From: a virus
Lineage: Duplodnaviria > Heunggongvirae > Uroviricota > Caudoviricetes
Length of the DNA stretch: 40,336 nucleotides
Direction: 5' to 3' (one strand)
IMG/VR virus record: IMGVR_UViG_643348545_000005
The stretch's first letter is position 1. Each line of letters starts with the position of its first letter. Positions 1,920 through 26,942 of the stretch are shown here, in pieces. A program made the translations under genes and the position numbers. Under the pieces are notes generated by a model. That model did not search any database. It was not told the DNA's origin and saw only the letters and a list, made by a program, of their open reading frames with translations.

Positions 1920-2320
1920 CGTCTGTAATCCAATGGAGAAAGGGGTGCCATATCGACTGCACCCGACAACCGGATAGCGGGGGCTTTCACCCCCGCTGCG
2001 GTTTCTTACTGTTTACACTGCAAGAACGCCGCAAATTCTGACCACATGATGTTAAGTCTGAACTCACACGGCGAACGGTGTATCATCCAGATGGCCAACA
2101 ACATGGTTAAGCATAAAATGCTCACGATGATCGTTTTTTGCGGCATAGCGCTTGACTCCTTTTACAGGGAGGCGCTAACCTTCCACTTGTCTAGGGTAGG
2201 AATGGTTAGGGCCTCGGGTTAAACAATATGTTTGACTCGGGGCCTTTCCACATCCGGCCTTCAGGTTTTCCTTCCAGCCGTCAGCCGAAAGGCACCCGCG
2301 CGTAATGTACTGGTTTTGAG
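1920..2320. repeat. hok/sok-like type I toxin-antitoxin locus, copy B
   Basis: Diverged tandem copy of 1440-1840 with its own Hok-like ORF and 3-prime hairpin (cgggggctttcacccccg); its right end lies inside the 3-prime end of the ogr ORF. Confidence 0.6.
2006..2146 (-). CDS. Hok/Gef-family small membrane toxin (46 aa), second copy
   Basis: My translation MPQKTIIVSILCLTMLLAIWMIHRSPCEFRLNIMWSEFAAFLQCKQ; same architecture as the copy A toxin. Confidence 0.55.
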   Translation of the reverse strand: MPQKTIIVSILCLTMLLAIWMIHRSPCEFRLNIMWSEFAAFLQCKQ

Positions 2321-2583
2321 GATATGCCGCAATCCTCCAGTTGTAGCGTTAACTGACTGCGTCCCTGATGGGATTTGCGCATTGTCTCCCGTGGAATATC
2401 TTTATCATGGAAGAGCAACTGAGGCTGGCCAATAATTCTGTGCACACTTTCCATTGTTGAAAATGTGGCGCTGCACTCAAGGTTATTGCACTGATAGTAT
2501 TTGTAGCGGATGGTGCCGGTATCATTGGCGGCTTTACTGGTACGGATCCGGGCAGATGCGCCGCAGAATGGACAATGAAACAT
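2281..2583 (-). CDS. ogr: Ogr/Delta late-gene transcriptional activator (zinc finger), with a C-terminal extension
   Basis: N-terminus MFHCPFCG...YYQCNNLECSATF carries the C4 zinc-finger of P2 Ogr; 100 aa versus about 72 aa for P2 Ogr because the ORF runs into the flanking repeat. Confidence 0.85.
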   Translation of the reverse strand: MFHCPFCGASARIRTSKAANDTGTIRYKYYQCNNLECSATFSTMESVHRIIGQPQLLFHDKDIPRETMRKSHQGRSQLTLQLEDCGISSKPVHYARVPFG

Positions 2584-2627
2584 TGATATACCCCCCTGGC
2601 TGAACTGGGGTTGAACTCGTCGCCATT

Positions 2628-3752
2628 CTAACCATTGCTTTCCTTTTCAGCTATCCACTCGGGTATTCTTGCCTCCAGTTCAAGCCTTGTGGTGAAGCCG
2701 CTTCCGTCGATATTGTGTTCCACTTTTGCAATGAGCCAGTCCTGATTGTCTATCTCGGTTTTAAAGCCGGTTACCGTGCCATGCATTTCCGGGTAAAGCT
2801 CCGCTCTGCCCCGGGCCAGCGTGATGGAGAATTCAGCCGCACCGCGCTGTAATTGCTGCCACCTGGCGGCAGCTGCGCGCTGTGCAGCAATTTCATTTGG
2901 GTAGGTTTTTCTCAGAACGAACACGTTACCTTCTGCCCCCTCCATGTAGCTGCCTTCCCGGCTGCTGCTCTTTTCAGCGTGAGTTTTTCGTTTTTTTATG
3001 TTGACGGCTTTCTTTTTGCCATGATTCAAATCCAGCCAGTACGCCTTCACCCCTGTGTATGCCTGGCGATCGGCTATTCTGAACTGGTGACTGTCTCCGT
3101 CACTGCGTGCCAGTGCAAATGAGGGGAGTGGGCGCCCGTCAGCTGTCACGCCGCCACCCGGCAGAATGAACAGCAGACAGCCATTTTTGACGGTAGTGAT
3201 GGCTCCCAGCATATCAGCCATGCGGGTAAGGAATGACATGTCGCTTTCTTCCGTCTGGTCGGCATGATCGATTTCAATATCCATAAGCATATCGCTTATC
3301 TGGGCTTTCAGTCCGTAACGGTGGGCAATAGCGGAAACCACGCGTTCAACAGTCACGCCGTGCCAGGATACTTCCCGTTTGACGTTAAATTCCTCCCTGA
3401 AGTCTGCGCTGTTTGCACTCAGTGTCAGCCGATCCGGAGGTCCTTCATGAGCGACCTCATCAACAATGTAGGTGCCTTTATCAACCAGAGGCTCTCCCTT
3501 CCATCCCAGCATGACTCTGATGTGTGTTCCCCGCCCGGGGAGAGCCAGCTGCCCGTCGGCATCATCCAGCACAAGAGTGACCCTGTCTGCTTCAAACCCC
3601 CGGTTGTCTGTCATGGAAAGCGATATCACCCGGTTATTCAGTTCCTGAAGAGTGTTTTTATCCTGCTCCCTGTCCAGTGAAACGCTGAAATCAGGCATTT
3701 TCACCAGTTCTTTCAGGGGGGAATAAACCGTGTTACCGTTCAGCAATACCAT
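2628..3752 (-). CDS. D: Tail protein D (late control gene D family)
   Basis: Translation from MVLLNGNTV matches P2 gpD along its length (TDNRGFEAD, SADFR, FLTRMA, GGMTS motifs). Start moved to the ATG at 3752, which has a GGAGG RBS; the track ORF extends further upstream. Confidence 0.85.
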   Translation of the reverse strand: MVLLNGNTVYSPLKELVKMPDFSVSLDREQDKNTLQELNNRVISLSMTDNRGFEADRVTLVLDDADGQLALPGRGTHIRVMLGWKGEPLVDKGTYIVDEVAHEGPPDRLTLSANSADFREEFNVKREVSWHGVTVERVVSAIAHRYGLKAQISDMLMDIEIDHADQTEESDMSFLTRMADMLGAITTVKNGCLLFILPGGGVTADGRPLPSFALARSDGDSHQFRIADRQAYTGVKAYWLDLNHGKKKAVNIKKRKTHAEKSSSREGSYMEGAEGNVFVLRKTYPNEIAAQRAAAARWQQLQRGAAEFSITLARGRAELYPEMHGTVTGFKTEIDNQDWLIAKVEHNIDGSGFTTRLELEARIPEWIAEKESNG

Positions 3753-3906
3753 AATTCCTCCGTTTTTCCCGCCACAGTTGCATACCAGAAACACCACCGG
3801 AATGAGTTTGGGTTGTATGTGTATTGCGAGAAACCGCAGTTCGTGAAAAAGCTCCCCGTGTTCGTAAAGATCTCTGCTGAACTCACACGAATGCAGGGTG
3901 AATAAT

Positions 3907-5094
3907 ATGGCTGAAACCCGTTTCCATGGCGTGCGGGTCCGGGAGAATGCGGATCTGGTCACGGCCATTAATGATATTGACTCCAGTGTGATTGGTATCG
4001 TGGCTGTTGCTGATGATGCTGATGCAAAAACATTTCCGCTGGATAAGCCGGTGCTCCTGACGCGCGTTATGGATGTGCTGGGTAAGGCCGGGAAAACCGG
4101 CACGCTGTACAAAAGTCTGAAAGCTATTGCCGATCAGGTCAGCACCAGAGTTGTTGTGGTGCGGGTTGCTGCTGCGAAGGAGGGGGATGGTCAGCCGACA
4201 CAAACGCAGCTTGTTATTGGTGAGGTCAAAAATGACGGAACCTATACAGGCATGCAGGCGCTCCTGGTGGCTGAACAGAATGAGGCTGTTGGTGTTCGTC
4301 CCAGGATCCTGGCCGTGCCATCGCTTGACACCAAAGAGGTGGTGGCGGCACTGGTAACCGTCGCGAAAAAGCTGCGTGCCTTTGTGTATGCGGGCTGTCC
4401 CGGCTGTAATACCGTGCAGGAGGCTGTTACCTGGCGCGCCGATCTTGCTCACCGTGAAGTTATGCTGATCTGGCCTGATTTTATCGCGTACAACCCTAAC
4501 AGTGGCCAGAATGAGGCTTTTCCTGCATCTGCGTATGCGTGCGGGTTGCGTGCGAAGATTGACCACGAGCAGGGCTGGCATAAATCCCTGTCCAATGTGG
4601 CAGTGAATAATGTCCTGGGTATTTCTGTGCCGGTGTTCTGGTCGCTCCAGGCAGAGGACAGTGACGCGGAAACCCTCAATGACAAGGAGATCACCACACT
4701 CATTAAACGTAACGGCTTCCGTTTCTGGGGTAACCGGACTCTCGACACCACTACCTACACCTTTGAGACCTACACGCGTACGGCGCAGTCGCTGGCGGAT
4801 ACCATCGCCGAATCGCAGTTTGAAACCGTGGACAAGCCGCTGACGCCGTCGAACGTGAAGGATGTGTTAAGCGATATCCGGGCAAAACTGAGTGCCCTTG
4901 TGACAGCGGGTAAACTTATCGGGGCAGAGTGCTGGTATGACGTGGTGGATAACGGCACAACGGATCTGCGTCAGGGGATTGTGCGGATCCGCTACAGATA
5001 TACGCCGGTACCACCGCTTGAAGATCTGGAGCTTCACCAGACGTTTACTGATGAGTTCTTTGACGGTGCATTTGCATCACTGGGAGGTGAGTAA
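3907..5094 (+). CDS. FI: Contractile tail sheath protein
   Basis: Strong similarity to P2 FI (KPVL, DTKEV, KLRAF, WPDF, IDHEQGWHK, GFRFWGNRT, YTPVPPLE). ATG at 3907 has an AGGGTG RBS; the track start at 3898 is a GTG. Confidence 0.9.
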   Translation: MAETRFHGVRVRENADLVTAINDIDSSVIGIVAVADDADAKTFPLDKPVLLTRVMDVLGKAGKTGTLYKSLKAIADQVSTRVVVVRVAAAKEGDGQPTQTQLVIGEVKNDGTYTGMQALLVAEQNEAVGVRPRILAVPSLDTKEVVAALVTVAKKLRAFVYAGCPGCNTVQEAVTWRADLAHREVMLIWPDFIAYNPNSGQNEAFPASAYACGLRAKIDHEQGWHKSLSNVAVNNVLGISVPVFWSLQAEDSDAETLNDKEITTLIKRNGFRFWGNRTLDTTTYTFETYTRTAQSLADTIAESQFETVDKPLTPSNVKDVLSDIRAKLSALVTAGKLIGAECWYDVVDNGTTDLRQGIVRIRYRYTPVPPLEDLELHQTFTDEFFDGAFASLGGE

Positions 5095-5603
5095 TGGCGG
5101 TACCAAACAAACTTCGCGTTTTCACGGTGTACATCGATGGCGAAAACAAGCTGGGGCGGGTGACGTCCTTCACGCCGCCTAAACTGACCCGAAAAACGGA
5201 GTCCTTCCGTGGTGCCGGGATGCCCGGCAGTGTTTCCGTCGACTTTGGTCTTGATGATGGTGCACTGGATCTCTCTTTTGCGGTAGGCGGCGCAGATGCC
5301 CACCTTTTCTCCCGTTATGCCGGGTCACTTGATGAAGTCCGTCTTCGCTTTTCCGGTGAGTACTATTCGGATGCGGATATCAGATATGTGGATATTGAGG
5401 TCCGCGGGCGCATCACTGAAATCGATATGGGGGAGGCGAAGCAGGGTGAAGACACTGAGCACAGTTATTCGATGAAAAACACCTGGTACAGACTGAGTGT
5501 GGACGATCTGGAAAAAATCGAATTTGATGTGCTGAATTTTATCTGGCGCATTGACGGTAAGGATGTGCTGCCGGATCGCACCCGCTCGATGCTGGGCTTC
5601 TGA
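5094..5603 (+). CDS. FII: Tail tube protein
   Basis: FTPPKLTRK...FRGAGM motif of P2 FII; ATG overlaps the sheath stop; GGGAGG RBS. Confidence 0.9.
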   Translation: MAVPNKLRVFTVYIDGENKLGRVTSFTPPKLTRKTESFRGAGMPGSVSVDFGLDDGALDLSFAVGGADAHLFSRYAGSLDEVRLRFSGEYYSDADIRYVDIEVRGRITEIDMGEAKQGEDTEHSYSMKNTWYRLSVDDLEKIEFDVLNFIWRIDGKDVLPDRTRSMLGF

Positions 5604-5650
5604 TGATGGTTTAACAGAGAACGGCGGGGATCCCGCCGTGGAGACTGAAA

Positions 5651-6040
5651 ATGGATAAAGAAACGGAAATGGCCACTGGCACTGCCGTCAGTAACGGGGA
5701 GGCTTCCGCGGTGGCAGTTGCCGCTACGGCTGCACCTAAGAACGTGGTGAAGCTGACGGTGCCTGTTGTGCGCGGAGATGTGTCGTACAGTGAAATTAAA
5801 ATCGGACCGCTGGCGAATCAGGCCGGATCGCTGCGTGGGCTGTCTTTGCTTGCGCTTTACAACATGAACTGTGATGCCATGGTCACCTGGCTTGCGCGTG
5901 TGACAGAGCCAAAACTCAAGGAGGCCGAAATGTATGCCATGAATACGGCGGATTTTACGGCGCTGAGCTCGGCGGCGGTTAATTTTTTCGCACCCTCGGG
6001 GTCGAATGCACCGGCACCGGAGAACACGGCAGAGCCGTAA
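5651..6040 (+). CDS. E: Tail assembly chaperone E
   Basis: Position between tube and tape measure; GGAG RBS; contains a slippery heptamer near its 3-prime end. Confidence 0.7.
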   Translation: MDKETEMATGTAVSNGEASAVAVAATAAPKNVVKLTVPVVRGDVSYSEIKIGPLANQAGSLRGLSLLALYNMNCDAMVTWLARVTEPKLKEAEMYAMNTADFTALSSAAVNFFAPSGSNAPAPENTAEP

Positions 6041-6198
6041 CCTGTCTTTGCTTTGACTGCATTGAAGATCCCGTTGCGGATATTGCTGTTATTTTTAACT
6101 GGCCGCCCGCAGAGATATTTGCAATGACGCCTGCAGAGGTGGTCGCCTGGCGTGAGCGGGCGGCTGCCAGAAGCGGAAGTCACAATCATGATGAATAA
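5651..6198 (+). CDS. Tail assembly chaperone E+E-prime (frameshift product)
   Basis: E frame to 5989, then the -1 frame to the TAA at 6196-6198, overlapping the start of T; analogous to P2 E/E-prime and lambda G/GT. Confidence 0.5.
5983..5989 (+). other. Programmed -1 ribosomal frameshift site (T TTT TTC) for E/E-prime
   Basis: Heptamer TTTTTTC in the E frame; the -1 frame continues to 6198 and encodes ...NWPPAEIFAMTPAEVVAWRERAAARSG. Confidence 0.55.
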
Positions 6199-8980
6199 TC
6201 TGCATATCAGGGTTGCTCTGGCGGCGGCAGACACCCTGACACAACCTCTCAGGCGCGCCCGCGAAACCGTGGGCGCGCTTTCTGATTCCCTCCGTGAAAC
6301 TCAGGACTCCATCCGCTCGCTTGAACGGCAGAGTGAAGCCTTTGCTGCGGCACAGACTAAATTTGACGAAGCCACCCGGAAAATTGCCGCTGTTCAGCAG
6401 CAACTGAACCGTCTGCAGCAGGCGGAGCGTGAGGGTACCGTGCTCAGTGAACGGCAGCGTGAAATGATGGCTTCGCTGACCACCCGGCTTGAACGTCTGA
6501 ACCGGGTGAGGGATGTACATCAGCGACGCCTGGAGGATTCTCGCCGGGAGCTGGAGAGACACGGTATTGCCGCAGAGGGCAGCAGTCAGACCATACAGGC
6601 AGCCATTCGCCGGACGGCAGAGTATAACGAAGCGCTGGCGCGACAGCGGCAGGCACTCGCACAGGTGACCCGTGCACAGCAACGCTATGAACAGGCGCAG
6701 GAGCGACTCGGGCGGATACGTAATGCCGGTGCGGCGGCACTGGCTGCCGGTGCAGCAGGACTTTACGCTGGCGGGCGTGCCGTTGCGCCGGTGATGGATC
6801 TCCAGCGTCATGGTGCCGTCATTGCGGCTCAGGCAGGAGAGGGCGCGTCAGATGCCGTGGGGTATACCGGGGTTATAAACCACATGGTTCATACCGGTAT
6901 CACACCGGATGCACAACTGGCGGCTGAAGCTGTGGGTGCTGTCCGCTCCACGCTGGGTGGGCTGGGGGCGGTTAGTGAGAATGAACTGACCCGAATCACC
7001 CGAAAAATGCTGGATATGCAGGCCGTGATGGGGGGCGATATCCCGCAGCACATTCAGGCGGCTGCCATCATGATCAAAAACGGTCTTGCACGCAGCAGTG
7101 ACGAGGCGGTTGATCTGATGGTGGCGGGCATGCAGCGCATGGGGCCGGTTATGCGCGATGAGCTGCCTGAGATCCTTCACGAATATTCGACCCATTTTCG
7201 TAACATGGGGCTGACAGGGTCGGAAACCATGACGCTCCTTGCGGATATGGCGCAGCAGGGGAAGTTTGCGCTGGATAAAACCGGCGATGCCATCAAGGAG
7301 TTCAGTATTCGCGGCTCCGATATGTCAAAGGCGAGTGCTGAAGCGTATGCGCTTATCGGGCTGGATGCAGCCAGGATGTCATCGGCTGTAGCCAGTGGTG
7401 GAACGGCTGCACGGGCTGCGCTGCAGAAAACAGCCTCGGGTCTGTTGCAGATCGTCGATCCGGCTGAGCGGGCCAATGCGGCCATCGCACTTTTTGGTAC
7501 ACCGGTTGAAGATCTGTCTGTCGATCAAATCCCTGCCTTTCTTGGCGCGCTGGCGCGGGTGTCTGACCGTATGGCTGACGTGTCTGGTGTGGCGGACCGG
7601 ATGGGGCAAACCCTGCGTGACAATCTGAGTGGTGATGTGGCGCGGCTTACCGGGACGTTCAGCGCGCTGAGAAGTGGGATTATCGGGGAGATTACGGACG
7701 ATCTGCGTGGGCTTGTCCGGATGGCCACAGCGTGGGGTGAGCGTCTGCAGGCGTGGGTGAATGCGCATCCGGAACTGGTGCGAATGATTGCGCTGACGAC
7801 GGGAGCGGTGCTGGCGTTAACCACAGCGATGGGGGCGTTGTCCGTTGCGGCCTGGATGGTTGTCGCACCGTTACTGAAACTGCGTCTGGGGCTTGCCCTG
7901 CTTCGCGCGATCCCGGCCGGACTCTCCGTTGCCGGTACGCTGTTTGGCGGACTGACGGGTGTGATTTCAGCCGTGGGGGCTGCGCTTGGGGCGCTGACCT
8001 GGCCGGTTGTGGTGGCGGTGGGAGCCCTGGTCGGTGGTGCTCTGCTGGTCTGGCGCTACTGGGATCGGGTCAGGGCGTTTGTGAGCGGATTTATTGAAGG
8101 GGTACAGTCAGCACTGGCGCCCTTCATGGCGACAGCCTCCCGTTTTGCGCCGCTGCTGGATCTGGTTTCAGGGGCACTGTCCCGTATTCTGGGATGGTTT
8201 AAATCCCTGTTAACGCCGGTCTCCTCCACGCGTGATTTGCTTGAGCAGTGCACCTCTGCCGGGCAGATGTTCGGGAGTACTCTGGCCGGTGCGTTAGCCA
8301 CGGTTTTTTCGCCCCTGAAAGCTCTGATTGACGGTCTGGCGTGGGTGCTGGAAAAACTCGGTGTTCTGCCCGGTGAAGCTGAGCGGGTTAAGCGAAAACT
8401 GGATGAGGCCCGTAAAACGCCGGTGGCGTGGGAGTGGGATCCGGAACAGAAAAAAATGGTTCAGAAGGCGTGGCACTGGTCGCCTCCTGGTGGGGCCAGT
8501 GTGCCTTCCGGCGCCTCCGGTACACAGCCTCCGCCGGTGGCGCTCCCTGCGGGGATAGCGCCGGACGGTAACCGTAACGTTCTCCGTCACCTGAAAGGCA
8601 TTGAGGGGAATACCGGTGGTCTGCTGGCTGAAAACCGTAAACGTATCGGACCCGGAGATATTGTGTTTAAACATCTTCCACGGGCGCTGGCGGTCCGGGG
8701 GCAGTGGCATGAACCTGTCGTTGCGCCGTCTTCCGGCGGAATGCGCGCGCTGCCACAGGAGGAGATTCAGGTGCAGCAATGGCCGACGGCACGCCCGGCG
8801 CCACGAATGCACCAGCAGGAAACCTTCGCCAGCGCCTTTCAGGGGGAGATACATGTGCATCTTCACGGGGTGAGTTCGCATAATCCCCGGGAACTGGCGC
8901 GCATGGTTGGTGACGCTGTCAGGGCGGAAATGAACAGAATGGCACGTGCCGGAACCGGCAGCTTCCGCGATCGCGACTGA
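6188..8980 (+). CDS. T: Tail tape measure protein
   Basis: About 930 aa, coiled-coil rich N-terminus and hydrophobic Gly/Ala-rich middle, typical of tape measure; sits between E and U. Start set at the ATGATG at 6188. Confidence 0.85.
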   Translation: MMNNLHIRVALAAADTLTQPLRRARETVGALSDSLRETQDSIRSLERQSEAFAAAQTKFDEATRKIAAVQQQLNRLQQAEREGTVLSERQREMMASLTTRLERLNRVRDVHQRRLEDSRRELERHGIAAEGSSQTIQAAIRRTAEYNEALARQRQALAQVTRAQQRYEQAQERLGRIRNAGAAALAAGAAGLYAGGRAVAPVMDLQRHGAVIAAQAGEGASDAVGYTGVINHMVHTGITPDAQLAAEAVGAVRSTLGGLGAVSENELTRITRKMLDMQAVMGGDIPQHIQAAAIMIKNGLARSSDEAVDLMVAGMQRMGPVMRDELPEILHEYSTHFRNMGLTGSETMTLLADMAQQGKFALDKTGDAIKEFSIRGSDMSKASAEAYALIGLDAARMSSAVASGGTAARAALQKTASGLLQIVDPAERANAAIALFGTPVEDLSVDQIPAFLGALARVSDRMADVSGVADRMGQTLRDNLSGDVARLTGTFSALRSGIIGEITDDLRGLVRMATAWGERLQAWVNAHPELVRMIALTTGAVLALTTAMGALSVAAWMVVAPLLKLRLGLALLRAIPAGLSVAGTLFGGLTGVISAVGAALGALTWPVVVAVGALVGGALLVWRYWDRVRAFVSGFIEGVQSALAPFMATASRFAPLLDLVSGALSRILGWFKSLLTPVSSTRDLLEQCTSAGQMFGSTLAGALATVFSPLKALIDGLAWVLEKLGVLPGEAERVKRKLDEARKTPVAWEWDPEQKKMVQKAWHWSPPGGASVPSGASGTQPPPVALPAGIAPDGNRNVLRHLKGIEGNTGGLLAENRKRIGPGDIVFKHLPRALAVRGQWHEPVVAPSSGGMRALPQEEIQVQQWPTARPAPRMHQQETFASAFQGEIHVHLHGVSSHNPRELARMVGDAVRAEMNRMARAGTGSFRDRD

Positions 8981-8990
8981 GGTGAAAAAG

Positions 8991-9482
8991 ATGATGATGA
9001 TTTATGGGATGTTTGTGTTTCAGTTAAGTACCCTGCCGCATCAGCAGGTGGAACAGAGTAAACGCTGGCGACACGTCAGTAATGAACGGGTTAACCGTTC
9101 ATCCTCCTGGCAGTATATTGGCTCTGGTGAAGATCACATCACGATGTCCGGTGTGCTCTGTCCGGAAATCACCGGCGGGGAGGTGTCACTGACTGCCCTG
9201 AACACCCTGGCCTACACAGGATTACCCTGGCCACTGATTGATGGTGTCGGACAGATTTACGGGATGTATGTCATTACGGAAATCAGGACCACCCGTCAGG
9301 AGCTGGATCGCTATGGCATGGCCCGCAAAATTGAGTTCACTGTCAGCTTTCAGCGATGCAATGAAGATCTGCGTGAGCGTCTTCAGTCGGGCTCGGTGGG
9401 TGATCTGATGGCAGGATTAAAAAACAGCGCGTCGTCGGCCCTGTCGTCGGCGTCCTCTGCGCTGTCTGGTCTCATGTTGTGA
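8991..9482 (+). CDS. U: Tail protein U
   Basis: MMMIYGMFVFQLSTLP...WRH...GPGED...LTGG matches the P2 gpU N-terminus; GAGGTG RBS. Confidence 0.85.
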   Translation: MMMIYGMFVFQLSTLPHQQVEQSKRWRHVSNERVNRSSSWQYIGSGEDHITMSGVLCPEITGGEVSLTALNTLAYTGLPWPLIDGVGQIYGMYVITEIRTTRQELDRYGMARKIEFTVSFQRCNEDLRERLQSGSVGDLMAGLKNSASSALSSASSALSGLML

Positions 9483-9492
9483 AGGTCACTGT

Positions 9493-10080
9493 TCAGGCTT
9501 CGGCTTCTTTTCCCCAGCCAACCTTATAGTCCAGAATCGCCGCCGTATCGTTCAGGGCGGCGATCTCTTTTTTCATGTTACGCTGGCGAATGTGAATTTC
9601 CATCCCTTTGGCAAACAGGGCTTTTGCGGCTGCATCGCTGAGGGCAATCAGCTCATCAGCAGAAACAGGAACATCGTTGTTCTGTGCATCAGTCCAGAAA
9701 AAATCCAGCGGCAGGATCCCCGCTTTTGCGGCAGCAACGGAAGGCTCAAGGCGGGCCTGCGTTGACTTCCCGTAGTCCCATTTCCGGCCGTTATGTTCAA
9801 AGGTGTAACTCGCCGCTTCCATCGCATTACGCCAGGTGTTGATTTCGTCGTTTTTCAGGCGTCTGGCGTTTTCCCTGTCAGTGTCGTTTTCCTGGTATTC
9901 AGATACAGGGCCGTGATTTCCTGCTTTCAGTTCGCCCCAGAGTTTTTTGCCGTGTGGCGAGTTGTCATATTCGGTTGCCGTATAGGGCAGCCAGCTCTCC
10001 TCCCCTTCAAACTGGATCTCACAGTCGATAGTGCCGTCACGGTTATAAGCGGCATTTCTTGCTGATTTGATTGTGTGCAT
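9493..10080 (-). CDS. G: Tail fibre assembly protein
   Basis: Tfa-like protein immediately downstream of the tail fibre gene; stop codon only 10 bp from the U stop (convergent). Confidence 0.8.
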   Translation of the reverse strand: MHTIKSARNAAYNRDGTIDCEIQFEGEESWLPYTATEYDNSPHGKKLWGELKAGNHGPVSEYQENDTDRENARRLKNDEINTWRNAMEAASYTFEHNGRKWDYGKSTQARLEPSVAAAKAGILPLDFFWTDAQNNDVPVSADELIALSDAAAKALFAKGMEIHIRQRNMKKEIAALNDTAAILDYKVGWGKEAEA

Positions 10081-10091
10081 GAGTCTCTCCG

Positions 10092-11432
10092 TCAGGCAAT
10101 GCGCTCAAATATTCCGATTCCTGCGCCTGCATAAATGTCAGCGCAGGCCCGCCACGTGCCCGGTGGCCTGCGGTTTGTGTTCCAGTTTTGCATGGATTCA
10201 CGGGGGCCGAAGTTGCCTTCGGAATGAGTCAGGCTTATCAGTCTGAGTTTACTGCCCGGGCGGGTGTTTCCGGCCGTTATATCAATTTTGGCTGGCCACT
10301 CCCCTTCGGCATCCGTTGCCGCCAGAATAAAGCTGCCCACATCCCAGAGTGTCCGCTGTGTTTTTGCCTGTGCAGCCTCCAGTGCTTGCCGTGCTTTCTG
10401 CCCGGCGTTTTCTGCTGCCGTCATGGCCGTCTTCACAGCTTTTGGTGTGGCAGCCAGCACTTCACTGTCACTGTCCGTTGCGCTGCTTAGCTGAACAATA
10501 CCTCGCTCTGTCAGGGAGGCATCGCCGGTCTGCGTGATGGGGAGTATGGCAACCTCCTTCCATTCAGACCACGGCCCGTTGCCGGTGAAGTTACCTGTCA
10601 CTGTCCGGATAAATTTCCGTGGTGGATTCCAGGCGGTGTATTCCTGCTGGCAGAATCCCCATGCGCCCATCCTGATGGATAATGATCCGGCTGATGTTAC
10701 CGGGTAGTGATGTGCTGTAGTGGCGCCGTTGTTGTTGGGCTGATAGTAGTCACCATGATGTTCAGGTCTCCCCAGTGTATTCAGATCCACGGCGAGGGGG
10801 GCTGTTGGTCTTGTTACTGTCAGCGCCTTAAGTGCTTTTATTGCTTTGGGTGTGGCTGCCCGGGTTTCATCATCACTGTCGGTTTCACTACTGAGCTGAG
10901 TAAATCCTTTACTGGTGGTTGTGGCATCCGGGTGTTTACCGTTTTGTTCATGCTGCTTTATCATTTCTGCCACGCCAGCCTGTGTTGCCATGGTGGTTGA
11001 TGAGTCGGCTGTCAGATTTACAGAGGCTTCGTTGCTCAGCAGAATCACCATGCGGAATACCTGTTCTCTGCCTGAGCCCTCATCAAGCTGCGGTTTGTAA
11101 CCTTCCGCAACATTACCCACGGCGATGAGTGTGCCTTTGCTGTCAAACAGACCGATTTCGCGGATCCAGAATCCTCCTTCATTCGCAGGAATGATCACTT
11201 CGGCGGTTAAAAAACTGGTGTTTTCCGCGTCACGGCTGACCCTGCTGACCTCGCCCCGCCAGACCTCTTTAACGAGAGCGGTTTGCGTGGCCAGTGGTTC
11301 TGTGGGTTTACCGTTACCGTCTCCGACGGCGATATGTGTCAGCGTGATCTTTTCTCCATCCGGTAACACCGCAGCTGCGAGGGCTGCTGTGCCGGCATTT
11401 GTGATAATGGTTTTGTATTTTGCGGCCATCAT
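10092..11432 (-). CDS. H: Tail fibre protein
   Basis: N-terminus ...KTIITNAG...KITLTHIAVGDGNG...EVWRGEV...GGFWIREIGL matches the conserved P2 gpH N-terminal domain. Confidence 0.85.
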   Translation of the reverse strand: MMAAKYKTIITNAGTAALAAAVLPDGEKITLTHIAVGDGNGKPTEPLATQTALVKEVWRGEVSRVSRDAENTSFLTAEVIIPANEGGFWIREIGLFDSKGTLIAVGNVAEGYKPQLDEGSGREQVFRMVILLSNEASVNLTADSSTTMATQAGVAEMIKQHEQNGKHPDATTTSKGFTQLSSETDSDDETRAATPKAIKALKALTVTRPTAPLAVDLNTLGRPEHHGDYYQPNNNGATTAHHYPVTSAGSLSIRMGAWGFCQQEYTAWNPPRKFIRTVTGNFTGNGPWSEWKEVAILPITQTGDASLTERGIVQLSSATDSDSEVLAATPKAVKTAMTAAENAGQKARQALEAAQAKTQRTLWDVGSFILAATDAEGEWPAKIDITAGNTRPGSKLRLISLTHSEGNFGPRESMQNWNTNRRPPGTWRACADIYAGAGIGIFERIA

Positions 11433-12064
11433 TACTCCTTGTCCGGTCTGATGGTTACTGTGATGCCTTCATAGGTGACTCCACCCGGGTGGATGTCACC
11501 ACTGACTGACAGCGGGCTTGTCACTTCTGCTGCCGGATATACCACGATGGTTTCCCCGGTCAGCGTGGCCCCGGTTATGCGGGATACACCCCGTGCAACG
11601 TAGGTCATTTTCATGGCGGCAAGGTGTCGGCTTACCGGGCGAACGGTGGTAATCATTCGCTCCATCTCCTGCCGGGTTTCCTCTGTCAGTCCGCGCTCCG
11701 ATATGTCAATATCCAGCCTGAATGACCCCGGCGGATCGTTGTTCTCCCACCATTCTGTAATACTCAGTATCGCGCCGAAGGGCTCCACAGCCCGACGCAT
11801 GGCGCTGATGGTGCCTTTGTGGCGGTGAATATGCCACGAGTCACGGATGATCTGACGACGTGCCTCTTCACTCCATGTTTCATCCCAGCGGTCAACGGAA
11901 AGCGCCCAGGCAAGCCATGGCAGCAGATGGGCTGGGCAGGTGTCGGGGTTCCAGAGGGTGTTGATATGGTTCGGCAGCTCTGACAGGCGCTGAGCGCCCT
12001 GTTCCGAATGATGCAGGAAGGAGGGCGATGATGGCGGCAGCAGTCGGTTATTCATCGGTGCCAC
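11432..12064 (-). CDS. I: Baseplate / tail protein I
   Basis: Position and similarity to P2 gpI (LLPWLAWALSVD...W motifs). Confidence 0.8.
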   Translation of the reverse strand: MAPMNNRLLPPSSPSFLHHSEQGAQRLSELPNHINTLWNPDTCPAHLLPWLAWALSVDRWDETWSEEARRQIIRDSWHIHRHKGTISAMRRAVEPFGAILSITEWWENNDPPGSFRLDIDISERGLTEETRQEMERMITTVRPVSRHLAAMKMTYVARGVSRITGATLTGETIVVYPAAEVTSPLSVSGDIHPGGVTYEGITVTIRPDKE

Positions 12065-12944
12065 CTGCAGAGATGTTCCGGGATGTGCAGCGGGCTGACT
12101 GGGTGTTACTGATCACCACATTCTGCGCTGGTTTCTTCAGCTCGACTCGCTGAACGCCCGGTACGTGTAGCGTTGCCATAATGGCAGAGCGGGCCACATC
12201 ACGCCCTATGGCATTCTGAGTCTTCAGCCATGTGTCAAGTGCATCTCTGGCGGCGGCAAGAATGGGTTCAGATTCCGGGCCAGGATAAAAATAGAGTACG
12301 GCCTCAATATCGTAACTGACGATGGTCGCACTCTGTACCGTGAGTCTGTCGGCCAGGGGGCGCACAGTTTCACCATTGAGAGCCCGGCTGACGGTCGCGA
12401 TTAATTCCGGTGACGCTGTGCCGTCTCCTTCCGTTGAGAGAATGGAGACAATGACCGTCGCAGGTGACGGACTGGTTGCCCGTGCATCGGCAACAAGACC
12501 GCTGGCACTGCGGGCAAAATATTCATATGCAGCAGAGGGGCCGGCGACGCTGAAACCTTCAAATCCGGATTGTGCCCGCAGACGGAACGCGCTGTCGCTC
12601 TCCATGATGGCAGCTTCTGTATCAGTAGCAGGTTTCAGTTCAAGGCGTTTCGCATTCACGATAGCGGCGAGATTATCCAGGTCTGTGGATACGGCATGGC
12701 TGAGCATGCACCCCGCCGCTGCATCGTTGATCCGCTGACGGAGCAGCATTTCGCGAAAGGCGATGGCCTGAGCAATGATGTTGAGTGGCTCTGATTCCAG
12801 CGCAATGGCTGTGCTGACGGCACTGCGCATGTTCTCAGGGAAGGCATCAATCATAAAGGCCTTCACGTCTTTCAGTATGCTCTCATAATCCAGTGATTCA
12901 ATGATCTGCGGACGTGGTAACTGAGACAGGTCAATTGTCGGCAT
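12048..12944 (-). CDS. J: Baseplate assembly protein J
   Basis: Similarity to P2 gpJ; overlaps the neighbouring genes as in the P2 operon. Confidence 0.85.
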   Translation of the reverse strand: MPTIDLSQLPRPQIIESLDYESILKDVKAFMIDAFPENMRSAVSTAIALESEPLNIIAQAIAFREMLLRQRINDAAAGCMLSHAVSTDLDNLAAIVNAKRLELKPATDTEAAIMESDSAFRLRAQSGFEGFSVAGPSAAYEYFARSASGLVADARATSPSPATVIVSILSTEGDGTASPELIATVSRALNGETVRPLADRLTVQSATIVSYDIEAVLYFYPGPESEPILAAARDALDTWLKTQNAIGRDVARSAIMATLHVPGVQRVELKKPAQNVVISNTQSARCTSRNISAGGTDE

Positions 12945-13296
12945 TACTCCCCCTCAGCGGAATGCTCATCTGTACGGGCTGCATTGTGCGGGTGAGCACG
13001 CCTGAGATGGCCAGCAGAGCGCGTCCGTCAGGCAGCCAGGTGATATCCACCCGGTTAATGGCGATCCGGGGCTCCCACTGTGCGAGCGCCATAACCACCG
13101 CGCTCATGCACTGCAGACGTGTCACGTCGTTTTGTGGCGCATCGAGCAGTTCAGGCAACAGGCTGCCATACTCTCTTCGCATGATGCGACTGCCGCGCGG
13201 GGTGGTCAGAATATTGTTTACAGAGTGGCGGAGGTGTTCTGTGTCACTGATGCATCCGCTACCATGCGGGTTCATGCCTGTGCATACCGGTGTCAT
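12931..13296 (-). CDS. W: Baseplate protein W (gp25-like)
   Basis: Similarity to P2 gpW (DTEHLRHSV..ILTTP.GSR.MRREYGS). Confidence 0.85.
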   Translation of the reverse strand: MTPVCTGMNPHGSGCISDTEHLRHSVNNILTTPRGSRIMRREYGSLLPELLDAPQNDVTRLQCMSAVVMALAQWEPRIAINRVDITWLPDGRALLAISGVLTRTMQPVQMSIPLRGSNADN

Positions 13297-13889
13297 TTCG
13301 GCCCCCCTGTCATGCTTCCGCCGGACTGAACACCGTTATGAACGTGCGTATGCACGGTAACACCATTTGAGCGTAAGTTTCCGTTACTGTGTGTGATATC
13401 CCCTTTCATGGTGCCACCGTCAGTCAGTTCAAACGTCCTGGCCTTCAGATGTTTTGTGCACTCTACGGCCGGTGTGTCCAGGGTAATACGTGTTTCCGCA
13501 GAGATCTCTGCGGTTTTGATTCCTTTCACCGTCAGCGCGCCTTTTTCTGCGTCATAGCGTATCTCGGCACCGTCAGGTGCAAGGAGTATCACTTCATTCT
13601 GTTTTGTGCCGGGCGCCGGGTGTTCTTCGCTGTAGAGACTGCCAGCCACAACGGCCATTTCAGGACTGCCGCCCGGGCAGAGCAACAGCACCTGTTCACC
13701 GGGGGAGGGGGGCAGCCAGATTTTAAACGCCCCGGCGCGTGTGCAGTTCCAGCGGAGCCAGTCCGTTGTCAGTCCGCCGCTGGTAGCGCGAATGCGCCAG
13801 TTTTTCAGATCCACCTCCGAAACGACGCCGGTGCGGACCATGTTTTCCAGCAGTCGCATGATTTCAGCATTCAACGGGTGTTTCTCCAC
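13293..13889 (-). CDS. V: Baseplate spike / assembly protein V
   Basis: Similarity to P2 gpV (TGG..TDWL.W...AG, SPGEQVL). Confidence 0.85.
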   Translation of the reverse strand: MEKHPLNAEIMRLLENMVRTGVVSEVDLKNWRIRATSGGLTTDWLRWNCTRAGAFKIWLPPSPGEQVLLLCPGGSPEMAVVAGSLYSEEHPAPGTKQNEVILLAPDGAEIRYDAEKGALTVKGIKTAEISAETRITLDTPAVECTKHLKARTFELTDGGTMKGDITHSNGNLRSNGVTVHTHVHNGVQSGGSMTGGPK

Positions 13890-14515
13890 AGGTTGTTGAT
13901 AATGATTTCCGTCACTTTCTGTCTGTCGGCTTCACTGAATCCCAGCAGTTCGCGTTGCGGATAGCGGACGGCATTACCGGCAGAGACCAGTGACACTTCG
14001 CCGAACTGATGAACGCGGGCAATGCGGGCTGCGCGGCCTTCAAATCCCACGCTGACGCCGCCGGGATCGGTTTTTACCTTCAGAAAGCGGTTTGTCCGAA
14101 GCTGCTCAAACATGGGTGGACGCTTAATGGCGCTCTGCGTTCGCCTGCGGGTGTCAATTTCCAGGTATTCTTCAATATCGGCTTTGTGGAACGAGCGTAT
14201 TCCCCGGCGCTCCGTGTCGTAACCGGTGATCATGGGGCCGTACCGGCCGGTTGTTGTCCGCCAGTTTTTCAGTCGTCTCACCTGAGTGCCGTTCCAGATG
14301 AACACCACACCTGCCTGGACACGGAATACACGTTTTTTACGGGCGGGCCACCGGTTACCGTCCGGTGATTGTTGCGAACGTATACGCTTTTGTTGCGCGG
14401 CGCGGACAGCCTGACCGACAGCACGGGCTGTTTTGTTTATACCGGCAGCGGACAAACCACTGAGGATCTCCTGAAAGAGACCGTCCAGTCTGTGCAGGTC
14501 ATCCGGAGCCATCAT
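13871..14515 (-). CDS. S: Phage virion morphogenesis / tail completion protein S family
   Basis: Position between R and V; start set at the ATGATG at 14515 just after the R stop; the track ORF extends upstream. Confidence 0.6.
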   Translation of the reverse strand: MMAPDDLHRLDGLFQEILSGLSAAGINKTARAVGQAVRAAQQKRIRSQQSPDGNRWPARKKRVFRVQAGVVFIWNGTQVRRLKNWRTTTGRYGPMITGYDTERRGIRSFHKADIEEYLEIDTRRRTQSAIKRPPMFEQLRTNRFLKVKTDPGGVSVGFEGRAARIARVHQFGEVSLVSAGNAVRYPQRELLGFSEADRQKVTEIIINNLWRNTR

Positions 14516-14966
14516 TCTGACCCCATGTGACATCTTCGAGGGTGACGCGCCATGCTTCCAGGGCCCGGCTGACAGGCGGCTCTCCGATGTGTTCTGCGTG
14601 AACAGTGCCATCATCATTACGGCGGATAATCACCCGCTCCCATACCGGGATTTCCAGCAGGATATCGGTGCTGTCGTCGTCATTGATGGCAACAGAAAAT
14701 TTGATATCCCTGTTTTTCTCCGGATTAAGCAGGAGATCAGGCTGATTGCGGTACAGCCAGCGCATCAGCGGCACCATCAGTTCATCGAGATCCTGCGTGA
14801 AGTCCATGACAAAGATCCCAAGCGTGTAACGGTAAAGATATGAGGGGGATTCGCCGGTCGTCTCAATGCCTCCGTTATTCACATACACAGTGAATTTCTC
14901 CGGGTTGGCGCGACACCATGGGCAGGCGTCAGTCATGGCGTCGCGCAGGGTGTTAATTTTCAGCAT
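14499..14966 (-). CDS. R: Tail completion protein R
   Basis: Similarity to P2 gpR; conserved position upstream of S. Confidence 0.8.
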   Translation of the reverse strand: MLKINTLRDAMTDACPWCRANPEKFTVYVNNGGIETTGESPSYLYRYTLGIFVMDFTQDLDELMVPLMRWLYRNQPDLLLNPEKNRDIKFSVAINDDDSTDILLEIPVWERVIIRRNDDGTVHAEHIGEPPVSRALEAWRVTLEDVTWGQNDGSG

Positions 14967-14981
14967 GCCCCCTCCTGTGTG

Positions 14982-15155
14982 TTATGGCATGTTCTGGTTG
15001 TTCTGTTGTGCAGACTTCTGACTGATTTTTTCAGCGGCGCGCTCGTCAATTTTTCGCTGAAAATAATTTCTGATAACACTGTAACCGCCGCTGATCAGAT
15101 ACAGCGCGCAGACGGCAGTACAGAAATACAGCATGATCTGATGAATGAATAACAT
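14982..15155 (-). CDS. Small hydrophobic protein (about 57 aa), function unknown
   Basis: ORF with a GAGGTG RBS and one predicted TM helix (MLFIHQIMLYFCTAVCALYLISGG), between the esterase gene and R. Confidence 0.3.
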   Translation of the reverse strand: MLFIHQIMLYFCTAVCALYLISGGYSVIRNYFQRKIDERAAEKISQKSAQQNNQNMP

Positions 15156-15301: not shown

Positions 15302-17347
15302 TTATGCGGCGTTGCTGTTATTGATATCCACCGTCACATACTCAATCAGCACGGGGTAGGTGTCCTGGTTACTGGTGATATCCGTGATCAGCAGTTTGTC
15401 GTTATCCAGTCCTGCCGCCGGGCATTTCGCCAGATTAAAGGCCGCCTGGGTCTGACCGTTGATGACCGGTGTCACGCTGATGCTGTTATTTCCGGCAAAC
15501 CGGAACACCACGTTGTGCCAGTTATGATTAAATGCCCCGAAGGTTCCCAGTTTTGCATTCTGTTGTTTGTGCTGCATCAGATTCAGGTTTGCGCTGTCGC
15601 TCTGGATGAAGAAGGCGGCCAGCATATCGTTTCCTGCGCTGCCTTCCAGAACAACGTTTTCAGGTAGCTGAGAAACCGGCCAGTGCAGAGCCATGGCGAA
15701 GCGGTTTTCTGCCAGCTGAACACCTTCCGGGATTTTGAAACGAAAGGCAATTTCCCCGCCTTTCTGAAGTAATTCAGCTGCTTTACTTGCAGGCACATCG
15801 TGGGCGATTTTCCAGGCTGTTTGTTGCCCCTGGACTTTTTCCACTCGCATGGCTTTACCGCTCTCAGCAGCAGAGTCATTTACGACGGAGGCTTTTCCAT
15901 CTGCCCCTGTCCAGCCCTGTTCTTTCAGTTTCCCTTCCTGTGCGTCTGCGCGATAAGCGACGGCCGTTGTTCTTGCCGGTGATGACTGCGTACCTGCGCC
16001 CGGCTGAGGTGCAGGTGTGGAGGGCTGCGGGCTTTCCGTGGTGGTGCTGTCTGAACCGGCCGTGGCGGGAGGTATTGCGAGCACGCTGAACGGTGCGGGT
16101 GCACCTTTCAGGAAGGCGACGGTCTTCCCGGCATGCATCAGGATCGCCGTTGCCAGGCGGTCAGAAATAATGCCGCGGCGGGCCCATGAACTGAAATGCG
16201 TGGCGCGATCTGAAGAGGTCCAGTTTCCGTTACTACGGGATGCAGCACCGTAATAACCGGCTTCTGCCAGGTCAGGATCTTCGGCAGGCAGGTTTGTTGG
16301 CGTGTTAGCACCTTTCTCATCGGTCATCAGGGGCACAAAATAAATTTTTTGCGCTTCTTTGTTCTGATATGCACCGTAAACCACCGGGTACTGAGAGGTA
16401 TATTGTTGTTTCCAGATATAGGTGGTATCGCCGCAAATCCAGGGAACAAGTGATGCGTTGCCTCCGGTGCACTGTGCAGCATATGCGCTGAGATCTGCGC
16501 GGAACTGATTCACCATGTTCAGGAATAATTGCGGGTACTGTGCGTATGTTGCTGATTTCAGATCAAACTCTCCCAGCATCCAGACCACGGATAACAGGAC
16601 GTTTTTGGGGTTTTTATCCAGCGCGGCTTTTGTACGGGTAAGCAGATCGTTATACAGCGGTTTGCCGACGCCCCACAGGGATGATTCGGCCGTTGCTCCT
16701 GAAGATTCACTGAATGCCCCCTCTGCGCCGGAAGTAAACGCTGACCCTCCACGACAGCAAGGTACCAGGAGGATCCCTGCATTTTTCGGGATAAACGCCA
16801 GTAATTTTTTGGCAATATGTAAACCCTGTCCGACGCAGCCATACTGACCTTTTGACAGATCGGCGTTCGGATGATTAAGGCTGCTCATATCCTGTACATC
16901 ATGGAGACAGTGATCTGCCGGAATAATATCGTTATAGGTACATGCAGCGCCGCCCGGTGTCACCGTACTGCGACGCGCTAACTGTTTAATTCGTGGATCA
17001 GGACTGTCGAATGTATCCGGTAATGGCAGCCCCTCACCGTATGCCATGCCATTGGACTGACCAGCCAGTGGCACCACATAATAAAACTCTGGCTCAGTTG
17101 TGTGTCCAGTGTTGTATCCGTCGGTAGTGCCCGGTACGGGTTTTTCCTCGCCTTCTGGTACCGGAATGGCTGATGGCAGGTCTCTGTCAGTGACCAGTGC
17201 CTGCATCAGGTAAAATGGTGCTCCCGGCTCTGATGCTGAGACAGGTCCCCCAAGAAGTCCCCATCCTTCCCTGAGCATGGGCGCAAGTTTTTCGGCAAGT
17301 TCCTTGTTCGTCATTGCCGTCACAAGCTGATAATGTTTCGGTACCAT
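15302..17347 (-). CDS. NanS-p-like putative sialate O-acetylesterase (N-terminal DUF1737-like region, SGNH/GQSN esterase domain, Ser/Thr/Pro linker, C-terminal lectin-like domain)
   Basis: GQSN block (VVPLAGQSNGMAYGEG) and domain order resemble prophage NanS-p/YjhS esterases. Start moved to the ATG at 17347, which has a GGAG RBS. Confidence 0.55.
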   Translation of the reverse strand: MVPKHYQLVTAMTNKELAEKLAPMLREGWGLLGGPVSASEPGAPFYLMQALVTDRDLPSAIPVPEGEEKPVPGTTDGYNTGHTTEPEFYYVVPLAGQSNGMAYGEGLPLPDTFDSPDPRIKQLARRSTVTPGGAACTYNDIIPADHCLHDVQDMSSLNHPNADLSKGQYGCVGQGLHIAKKLLAFIPKNAGILLVPCCRGGSAFTSGAEGAFSESSGATAESSLWGVGKPLYNDLLTRTKAALDKNPKNVLLSVVWMLGEFDLKSATYAQYPQLFLNMVNQFRADLSAYAAQCTGGNASLVPWICGDTTYIWKQQYTSQYPVVYGAYQNKEAQKIYFVPLMTDEKGANTPTNLPAEDPDLAEAGYYGAASRSNGNWTSSDRATHFSSWARRGIISDRLATAILMHAGKTVAFLKGAPAPFSVLAIPPATAGSDSTTTESPQPSTPAPQPGAGTQSSPARTTAVAYRADAQEGKLKEQGWTGADGKASVVNDSAAESGKAMRVEKVQGQQTAWKIAHDVPASKAAELLQKGGEIAFRFKIPEGVQLAENRFAMALHWPVSQLPENVVLEGSAGNDMLAAFFIQSDSANLNLMQHKQQNAKLGTFGAFNHNWHNVVFRFAGNNSISVTPVINGQTQAAFNLAKCPAAGLDNDKLLITDITSNQDTYPVLIEYVTVDINNSNAA

Positions 17348-17357
17348 AGTGACTCCG

Positions 17358-17633
17358 TTATTTTTCATGAGTGTTCATTCGTGCTGTCCGCTGCCGCTCC
17401 AGCCCGGCAATGGCGGCTTTATCGGCATTACAACTGTCCAGGGCATCTACCAGTCGGTCTCCCCAGTCAGCCACATCAGCCCATATCATGTGTTGCGGCA
17501 GCACCGGTACCGGCGTCTGTCTGGTCAGACTTTCCGGCACGCTCCCGCAAATGACGCCGGTTTTCAGCGGCGCTGGCGTGTTGTTGCAGGCTGTCAGCAA
17601 CATCAGCAGGGGGAGAAGTGCGTGCGCACTCAT
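17358..17633 (-). CDS. lysC: o-spanin (Rz1/LysC-like outer-membrane lipoprotein)
   Basis: Signal peptide with lipobox (LLMLLTAC) when started at MSAHALL; embedded in the 3-prime part of the i-spanin gene in another frame. Confidence 0.55.
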   Translation of the reverse strand: MSAHALLPLLMLLTACNNTPAPLKTGVICGSVPESLTRQTPVPVLPQHMIWADVADWGDRLVDALDSCNADKAAIAGLERQRTARMNTHEK

Positions 17634-22305: not shown

Positions 22306-22377
22306 GGAAATTCTCCATAACCTGGTCGTTTTTCCCATGATGGCGGTAGAGAACGGTGTGTCTCAAGGTGCTTAAGT

Positions 22378-22395
22378 TGTATGGCGACGGGGACA
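22378..22395. promoter_or_regulatory. Candidate Ogr-type late promoter element (TGT-N12-ACA) in the divergent O/P intergenic region
   Basis: TGTatggcgacggggACA about 65 bp upstream of the P start; P2 late promoters carry a TGT-N12-ACA dyad near -55. Confidence 0.35.
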
Positions 22396-22460
22396 ACGCG
22401 GGCAGGTATCAGGCGGTATTGCTGAGGCTTAATCTTGCCCTGTTAATGTCAGGGGGTGCA

Positions 22461-25811: not shown

Positions 25812-26356
25812 GTCGCTCTCCTTTGGTCTGTTTATGCCAGCCTGTATTCTGCGCTCACCTCATATTGTGCGCAAGTTTTCACCCGTGAATGACTGATACT
25901 TTAAATTCTATTAACTTTATGATTTCAGTGATTTTTGTCTCTCTTTTTTATCCCGTTCGTCACGTCCGTTTCCCTCCCGATCTCCGACCTCGCCAGACGC
26001 AATCAGACGCATTCTGACGGCCTGTTTCCCTGACCATGTTTTGATGTGGTTTTTCAAAACTGACTTTACTGCGTGCGTATCACGCGCCATACGACCCCAA
26101 ATAAAGCAACCCGCCTTCCATCCCTCAATTCGGGCGCCCTTCCCTCGTCGCCTGCGCGCTGCAATTGCCTCGTTTTTCGTGCACCGTGCAAACCGGCCTC
26201 AGCCAGCGCCGTTACTGGGCTGAATGGGGATGAAACACATAAGAAAAATTGTGCAATTTCGTGCGCTTTTGTGCATTTTTTATCTTGCGATTTTTGGGGG
26301 TGGGTGGTGATGATAATCATCTGTCTGAATCAGTGGTGTATTGCCGGGTGAGAACT

Positions 26357-26893: not shown

Positions 26894-26942
26894 AAAAAGA
26901 AATCCTGTGTTACCCTCGCTGCTGAGGGTAACATGCGTGAAG

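Follow-up and report, generated by a model that had tools for sequence, protein, structure and literature searches.

This analysis concerns the late tail genes of a prophage on a 40,336-nt stretch of DNA (IMG/VR record IMGVR_UViG_643348545_000005, hereafter the window). According to an open reading frame (ORF) map and to Pfam and PHROG scans, FI-FII-E/E'-T-U occupy the plus strand, and the genes on both sides of them, ogr and D on one and G-H-I-J-W-V-S-R on the other, occupy the minus strand (Table 1). The window holds an Escherichia coli prophage of the Peduoviridae (P2 family), inserted beside serS. We consider it very probable that the inverted FI-to-U block is the inherited, ordinary gene order of a branch of P2-family phages, that of the P88 and SEN4 type. 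An earlier reading of the same DNA, made from its letters alone (the sequence-only reading), had assigned the same genes to the same strands, and the ORF map, Pfam, PHROG and the names given by the Prokaryotic Genome Annotation Pipeline (PGAP) all agree with it; comparison with the P2 record likewise bears out that the block is inverted relative to P2 and that D is divergent from FI. The accompanying claim that all known relatives of P2 are co-directional in this region is wrong, as the inverted order is found in phages of five genera of the International Committee on Taxonomy of Viruses (ICTV).

Positions 2281-15000 of the window (12.7 kb) were used as the query for E. coli genomes and phage records. 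Twelve complete E. coli chromosomes match this region in one full-length alignment, with identities of 95.7-99.5%, and one further IMG/VR contig is collinear over the same 12.7 kb; in the annotated copy, STEC2018-607, serS also adjoins the prophage. The layout is therefore neither an artefact nor specific to one strain, two possibilities raised by the sequence-only reading that the annotated phages described below exclude as well. The opposite orientation of the same DNA was not found in any E. coli genome.

Among more distant relatives, layout was scored by placing twelve window proteins on each locus by tblastn, using 59 IMG/VR loci gathered with the U protein and 80 loci from species-representative bacterial genomes (GTDB) with a D alignment. 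The inverted order is present in all 38 informative IMG/VR loci whose U is at least 66% identical to that of the window (n = 39, one contig being too short to show the neighbours), and the P2 order in all 21 with U at or below 45%. The GTDB loci divide in the same way. All 44 with D at least 55% identical have the inverted order, and they come from more than 20 genera of Enterobacterales, including Salmonella, Citrobacter, Kluyvera, Kosakonia, Enterobacter, Klebsiella, Raoultella, Yokenella, Mixta, Pantoea, Erwinia, Brenneria, Pectobacterium, Symbiopectobacterium, Serratia, Rouxiella, Yersinia, Providencia, Morganella, Photorhabdus, Xenorhabdus and others; the 36 genome loci with D at or below 51% have the P2 order or are uninformative. 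The GenBank phage records show a similar gap, with 48 records at 59.8% D identity or above and the next falling to 49.6%. This provides a simple rule for separating two large enterobacterial P2-like branches: a gpD at least about 55% identical to the D of the window goes with an inverted tail module.

The five genera whose deposited phages have the inverted layout are Xuanwuvirus, Novemvirus, Reipivirus, Reginaelenavirus and Senquatrovirus. The order is annotated in P88_4B11 (Xuanwuvirus), SEN4 (Senquatrovirus) and phiT5282H (Novemvirus), and tblastn recovers it in the unannotated Klebsiella phages Kp4845-1 (Reipivirus) and Kp4871-3 (Reginaelenavirus). The 6-kb partial record of Serratia phage KSP20 shows only that a gpD-like gene is divergent from gpFI-, gpFII-, gpE- and gpT-like genes. 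Co-directional order is found in P2, Cartapus (Elveevirus) and ST11-VIM1phi8.4 (Kapieceevirus). The alignment against P2-like genomes that the sequence-only reading had proposed thus finds the inversion to be shared, and to be the standard arrangement of described genera. The layout is a lineage marker that has been in GenBank since as early as KSP20, and because it is already present in annotated genomes of five genera it needs no anomaly flag in future scans. The open-access papers searched on P88, phiSM and SEN4 do not remark upon the inversion, and literature searches on Xuanwuvirus, P88, SEN4, Peduoviridae inversion and carotovoricin gave no discussion of this gene order. Rearranged tail operons have already been noted in another P2-like phage, Smp131 (PMC3931495).

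We also considered xenorhabdicin (xnp1) as a tailocin form of the layout and rejected it, because the literature puts its variable region between the sheath and fibre genes, which is the P2 order; the inverted-layout Xenorhabdus loci in the present sample are prophages other than xnp1. One relative (IMGVR_UViG_2648501916_000004, positions 6721-10500) is the only one with I and H on the strand of U, where they follow an invertase. Its contig lacks J, W and V; the locus may have been rearranged once more, or the contig may be degraded or chimeric. An enterobacterial-type prophage with 78% D identity and the inverted layout is also present on a contig of 226 kb whose label is that of a Firmicute (NZ_JBQPOM010000071.1, 'Vagococcus sp. 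WN89Y'); this contig is probably contaminated or mislabelled.

The divergent region between D and FI

D and FI are separated by 154 bp (3753-3906), exactly as the sequence-only reading had reported, and in 85 inverted-layout loci the corresponding spacers measure 116-217 bp, with start codons estimated from tblastn matches. In an alignment of 37 distinct spacers, a central TTGT-N12-A(G/C)AA is by far the most conserved element. Its half-sites in the window are TTGT at 3813-3816 and AGAA at 3829-3832, and the centre of this dyad, between 3822 and 3823, is 84.5 nt away from the ATG of FI and 70.5 nt away from the start of D. Of 79 unique spacers, 68 contain TTGT-N12-A[CG]A, where shuffled spacers give a mean of 1.2, and the distance from the dyad centre to the FI start stays within 74.5-88.5 nt (median 83.5). 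Elsewhere in the 40-kb window the alignment-derived motif TTGT-N12-A[CG]AA occurs only at 22377-22396, in the middle of the divergent region between O (scaffold) and P (terminase). PMC3931495 reviews the four late operons of P2, which depend on Ogr, and gives TGT-N12-ACA as the consensus; this exact sequence is absent from the D/FI spacer, and its count across the window is that of chance. No match to sigma-70 consensus promoters was found within 3753-3906, and none is expected because late promoters of this kind depend on an activator.

The position of -10-like hexamers relative to the dyad is also constrained. We anchored 34 inverted-clade representatives (at most 80% mutual identity) on the dyad centre and compared them with 24 representatives of the P2 layout. 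On the FI side the pattern nAnnnT ends at offset 49 in 32 of the 34 inverted-clade spacers; on the D side it does so in 25 of 34 and at offset 50 in 8 more, no other offset ever exceeding 8. The P2-layout representatives have nAnnnT at offset 49 on the FI side in 23 of 24 cases, and on the opposite side in only 2 of 24. In P2 itself, transcription from pP and pO has been mapped to start sites at 55.5 nt to either side of one annotated activator site, with hexamers at the same offset, and the mapped pF start site fits the same hexamer geometry. The O/P region of the window has such a pair as well, TAATCT on the P side (offset 49) and CATCAT on the O side (offset 50).

Ogr-dependent late promoters of P2 combine a dyad of the TGT-N12-ACA type, centred some 55 nt upstream of the start site, with a -10-like element and a poor -35. 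Their dyad and hexamer geometry is seen on both sides of the D/FI spacer (TGT-N12-AGA, hexamers at +/-49). The FI start site is predicted at about 3877-3879 on the plus strand and the D start site at about 3766-3768 on the minus strand. The sequence-only reading had argued that the 154 bp must hold two promoters, and the conserved dyad and mirror hexamers lend this comparative backing: the spacer probably contains two divergent Ogr-dependent promoters that share one activator site, both being predictions at this stage. We hypothesize that the inversion cut D from the end of the F operon and set its 5' end beside the dyad-symmetric Ogr site of the FI promoter, creating a second bidirectional late control region. 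From one central site, Ogr would then activate FI to U in one direction and, in the other, D together with ogr by read-through, a design that would mirror the single P2 site for pP and pO. D and ogr would have gained an Ogr-activated promoter, and co-transcription of ogr with D would give ogr direct positive feedback. Only a mirror -10 would be needed for a symmetric site to serve D, which may explain why the inversion was tolerated, and the spacer would be a testable example of a symmetric activator site that permits an inversion. Together with the later loss of a terminator in the E. coli lineage, discussed below, we put this proposal at about an even chance of being correct.

Several observations weigh against this proposal. 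The D promoter, its dependence on Ogr and both start sites are predictions, and the predicted D leader is only about 15 nt long. The right half of the dyad in the window is AGA instead of ACA, a variant that is common in the clade (P2 sites are also imperfect, with CCA), and the strict motif is absent from 11 of the 79 spacers, mostly those of Xenorhabdus and Providencia. Finally, the distance from dyad to D start varies from 45 to 133 nt among relatives, although these starts are tblastn estimates and imprecise. An unlikely alternative is that the dyad serves the FI promoter alone and that D and ogr are expressed from an independent, non-Ogr promoter, for example an early or constitutive sigma-70 promoter. 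Such a promoter would account for a dyad held at a tight distance from FI and not from the D start codon; P2 ogr has a promoter of its own between D and ogr, and few copies of gpD are needed, so weak constitutive expression could suffice. However, this alternative does not predict the frequency of D-side hexamers at the mirror offset, which is far above that on the non-FI side of P2-layout phages, nor does it fit the lack of a sigma-70 consensus match in the spacer or the use of the same one-dyad, two-hexamer design in the O/P region of the window.

Origin and age of the inversion

In each of the neighbour-joining trees built for D, FI and U, one bipartition divides the inverted from the P2 layout exactly, and FI and U of the window, like D, group with the inverted branch and not with the P2-layout phages. 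When the D tree is rooted at its midpoint, the inverted group is monophyletic within a paraphyletic P2-layout group. The D of the window is 59-99% identical to those of inverted-branch members (59-79% to that of every inverted-layout relative) and 35-49%, at most 51%, to those of P2-layout phages. The exact split in all three trees therefore points to one inversion, and it must be old because proteins across the split are only 45-57% identical. The simplest reading of these data, well supported but short of proof, is that the segment comprising the FI promoter and FI to U was inverted a single time, that the P2 order is ancestral, and that the inverted segment would then have become fixed in a branch of Enterobacterales phages. 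The trees that weigh on this reading are simple ones, without support values, and the sampled loci were picked by similarity to the window.

It is improbable that the layout arose several times independently. With 51-59% identity to the inverted group and 51-55% to the P2-layout group, the FI of SEN4 is hardly closer to the former, and tail operons have been reshuffled in other P2-like phages such as Smp131, both of which multiple origins would accommodate. Against this stand the exact split in all three gene trees and D identities that divide the two layout groups without overlap. The breakpoints and the design of the D/FI spacer, with its dyad and mirror hexamers, are also common to SEN4-like and P88-like members.

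Still less probable is a recent or reversible event, either a rearrangement in a single strain or a tail module that flips in the manner of Hin, Gin or Cin systems. This explanation draws on the DNA invertase found directly after U in some relatives, and on P2-like phages such as Cartapus, in which invertases are common at the locus. However, tblastn with the P88 and Cartapus invertases finds no invertase gene in the window. The search for inverted repeats at the junctions, suggested by the sequence-only reading, gave only chance-level pairs around the block, none of them joining 3753-3906 with 9483-9492. All 12 E. coli copies have the block in one and the same orientation, as do the 85 inverted-layout relatives whose D/FI spacer could be measured, and the protein divergence across the split argues for an old event. 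All defining features of a Hin/Gin/Cin-type invertible segment (invertase, crossover repeats, both orientations) therefore fail. An origin of the inversion through the invertase was likewise rejected. Where the enzyme is present, as in P88 and Cartapus, its gene is outside the inverted block and points the same way as H and G; because this orientation is kept in both layouts, the invertase is not part of the inverted segment.

That the block was simply misoriented in this one assembly is hardly credible, since 12 complete E. coli genomes, each assembled independently, and one IMG/VR contig all have both junctions base for base, and the same order is present in more than 80 diverged relatives, including the isolated plaque-forming phages P88, phiSM and SEN4.

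The convergent junction of U and G

At the far end of the block the stop codon of U (TGA, 9480-9482) faces that of G (tca on the plus strand, 9493-9495), with 10 bases between them. The sequence-only reading had noted these convergent stops and the lack of room for a terminator, and both scanning and folding agree. A pattern scan finds no terminator-like site at the junction (20 sites in 13 kb, against 13.1 ± 3.8 in shuffled sequence), and RNA folding there is no better than that of shuffled sequence (z +0.6 to -0.7). In four sister lineages in which a homologous G abuts U, the spacer is 32-42 bp long and holds a strong hairpin with runs of A and T at its two flanks (TTAAAACGCCCGTCAGTCGGGCGTTTTAA is one example), which we read as a bidirectional terminator. 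The window, STEC2018-607 and the collinear IMG/VR copy have 10 bp and lack the hairpin, so the E. coli lineage has lost the terminator.

Without a terminator at the 10-bp junction, the convergent late transcripts must end by other means. Termination by Rho on untranslated antisense read-through is our likeliest guess. The U/G junction is thus a naturally occurring example of late operons that converge with no terminator between them. If the D/FI spacer is a second bidirectional control region, the two longest late transcripts would collide head-on across 10 bp.

Because G directly meets the FI-to-U block, with nothing in between, the window has no cargo of the Z/fun type. The sequence-only reading was right about this absence, but in attributing it to the inversion it went too far, as the corresponding junction of the relatives is variable. 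From the U stop to the H start the distance ranges from 1.2 to 4.6 kb across the clade (1.95 kb in the window), and an invertase directly follows U in P88 and six other loci. This variation indicates that the U-to-G/H junction is the variable fibre locus of the clade, the topological equivalent of the P2 G-to-FI locus. On this comparison, the missing cargo is a trait of this lineage, a minimal form of the locus, and not a result of the inversion. We propose that the inversion brought the far end of the block head-on against the end of the baseplate and fibre operon; at this place relatives have either a bidirectional terminator or fibre cassettes accompanied by an invertase, and in the E. coli lineage only 10 bp and no terminator are left.

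Gene content and comparison with known phages

Table 1. Coordinates, strands and supporting matches of the late tail genes and control elements in the window
Feature	Position	Strand	Basis or remark
ogr	2281-2583	-	ogr/Delta-type zinc-finger late activator; Pfam Ogr_Delta, E=1.3e-15
D (gpD, baseplate hub / late control D)	2628-3752	-	Pfam Phage_GPD; phrog_52
Divergent D/FI control region	3753-3906		154 bp
Predicted -10-like hexamer, D promoter (AACTGT)	3774-3779	-	ends 49 nt from dyad centre
Central Ogr-type dyad TTGTATGTGTATTGCGAGAA (TTGT-N12-AGAA)	3813-3832		spacer alignment
Predicted -10-like hexamer, FI promoter (AAAGAT)	3866-3871	+	ends 49 nt from dyad centre
FI, tail sheath	3907-5094	+	Pfam Phage_sheath_1, sheath_1C, Gp18_domIII_N; phrog_23
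FII, tail tube	5094-5603	+	Pfam Phage_tube, E=5e-48
E	5651-6040	+	tail chaperone; phrog_103; PGAP 'GpE family phage tail protein' at the matching place
E+E' tail chaperone	5651-6198	+	-1 frame open to 6198 (frame translations)
T, tape measure	6188-8980	+	Pfam PhageMin_Tail; phrog_28
U, tail protein	8991-9482	+	Pfam Phage_P2_GpU, E=1e-38
Convergent U/G junction AGGTCACTGT	9483-9492		10 bp, without terminator
G, fibre assembly	9493-10080	-	DUF4376
H, tail-collar fibre	10092-11432	-	Pfam/PHROG
I	within 9493-14966	-	Tail_P2_I; Pfam/PHROG
J, W, V (baseplate)	within 9493-14966	-	tblastn collinearity; PGAP names
S, R (tail completion)	within 9493-14966, up to 14966	-	PGAP names
Second dyad TTGTATGGCGACGGGGACAA	22377-22396		centre of the 155-bp O/P divergent region 22306-22460

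The window contains a P2-type late gene set, with Q/P divergent from O-N-M-L, and with X, lysis, tail and baseplate genes (Pfam, PHROG, PGAP). Among the PGAP names in the STEC2018-607 copy are 'major capsid protein, P2 family', GPO scaffold, gpM and portal, and a rolling-circle replication protein gpA is encoded at 29515-32037 (Phage_GPA, E=2e-108). The prophage is a clear member of the Peduoviridae and of the branch with the inverted module. D is separated from the FI-to-U operon, and ogr, which PGAP names 'ogr/Delta-like zinc finger family protein' in STEC2018-607, follows 44 bp downstream of D in the same direction. E' is reached through a canonical -1 slip at an intact T_TTT_TTC (5983-5989); a TAA in the -1 frame sits directly before this site, so the E' frame opens exactly there.

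The genes from G through R run in one direction and abut or overlap. S and V overlap at 13871-13889, so neither a P2-type pV promoter nor an insert of the orf30 type could fit between them. As the window has only two dyad sites, one very long late operon may run from O to G and take in the genes for head, lysis, tail completion, baseplate and fibre. The fibre gene H is one intact ORF of 446 aa in the window; in STEC2018-607 (25815-27149 of that locus) it consists of three pseudogene fragments, and the large terminase of that copy is frameshifted too, so copies of the prophage are at different stages of decay.

Accessory genes lie at several places. A gene of 688 aa on the minus strand (15302-17368), between the lysis genes and R, has AT-rich flanks and combines DUF1737, SASA (sialate O-acetylesterase-like) and DUF6645 domains. 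PADLOC gave no match for it, and its architecture resembles that of the prophage NanS-p esterases of enterohaemorrhagic E. coli. The interval from serS to ogr contains two toxin genes of the Hok/Gef family, at about 1534-1674 and 2006-2146 on the minus strand, as judged by what PGAP annotates in the STEC2018-607 copy. In the early region, an IS3-type transposase pair (HTH_21 and rve, 27253-28409, plus strand) looks like an insertion sequence specific to the window copy; the interval from ogr to the Dam methylase gene is about 1.7 kb longer in the window than in STEC2018-607, which has no annotated transposase.

At the DNA level, megablast of the tail region (2281-15000) against 50,697 phage records finds the nearest relatives in Xuanwuvirus P88_4B11, phiSM and similar phages, with about 800 bp, or 6-7% of the 12.7-kb region, at about 76% identity. 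ICTV delimits genera at about 70% nucleotide identity over the genome. Over the tail region, genus-level identity with Xuanwuvirus or any of the other four genera is not reached, the best match having 7% coverage at 76%. The prophage is not a Xuanwuvirus, since DNA similarity extends over so little of the region.

P88 and Citrobacter phage phiSM are viable temperate phages related to the window but unlike it in DNA, with proteins that are 77-79% (D), 75% (FI) and 68-69% (U) identical. P88 and P88_4B11 have V W J I H G on one strand, U T E' E FII FI on the other, and D and ogr back on the first, as in the window. The D/FI spacer of P88 is 154 bp by tblastn estimate and has the same dyad, and in both prophages a hok/mok-type toxin gene, MokW-like in P88, lies beyond ogr. 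P88 differs in having an alternative fibre cassette and a DNA invertase between G and U, which extend its U-to-H distance to 4.6 kb. SEN4/SEN5 (Senquatrovirus), phiT5282H, 3LV2017/Kp4871-3 and Kp4845-1 share the inverted tail module, and the central dyad is present in SEN4, Kp4845-1 and Kp4871-3. This group, with KSP20, is more distant (D 60-71% identical), and in SEN4 about 200 bp separate U and G.

P2 and 186 resemble the window in gene set, in the E/E' frameshift, in an Ogr-type activator and in sites of the TGT-N12-ACA type about 83 nt upstream of FI (82.5 nt for the P2 pF site, 84.5 nt in the window). P2 proteins are 44-54% identical to those of the window in the tail (27% for T) and 40-54% over tail and baseplate together (tblastn). 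P2 differs in that FI to D form a single operon, co-directional with V to G, in which U and D overlap by 1 nt; moreover, its interval from G to FI contains the Z/fun cargo and a terminator, and pV exists as a separate promoter. In P2, ogr is under positive feedback by read-through from the F operon. Unlike the D/FI spacer of the window, pF of P2 has no mirror -10 on its other side. The parallel is instead the P2 pP/pO region which, like the D/FI spacer, has one dyad central in a divergent spacer of 154-173 bp, with hexamers about 49 nt to each side. In P2 this shared-site design is documented only between P and O, whereas the window has a second, predicted copy between D and FI.

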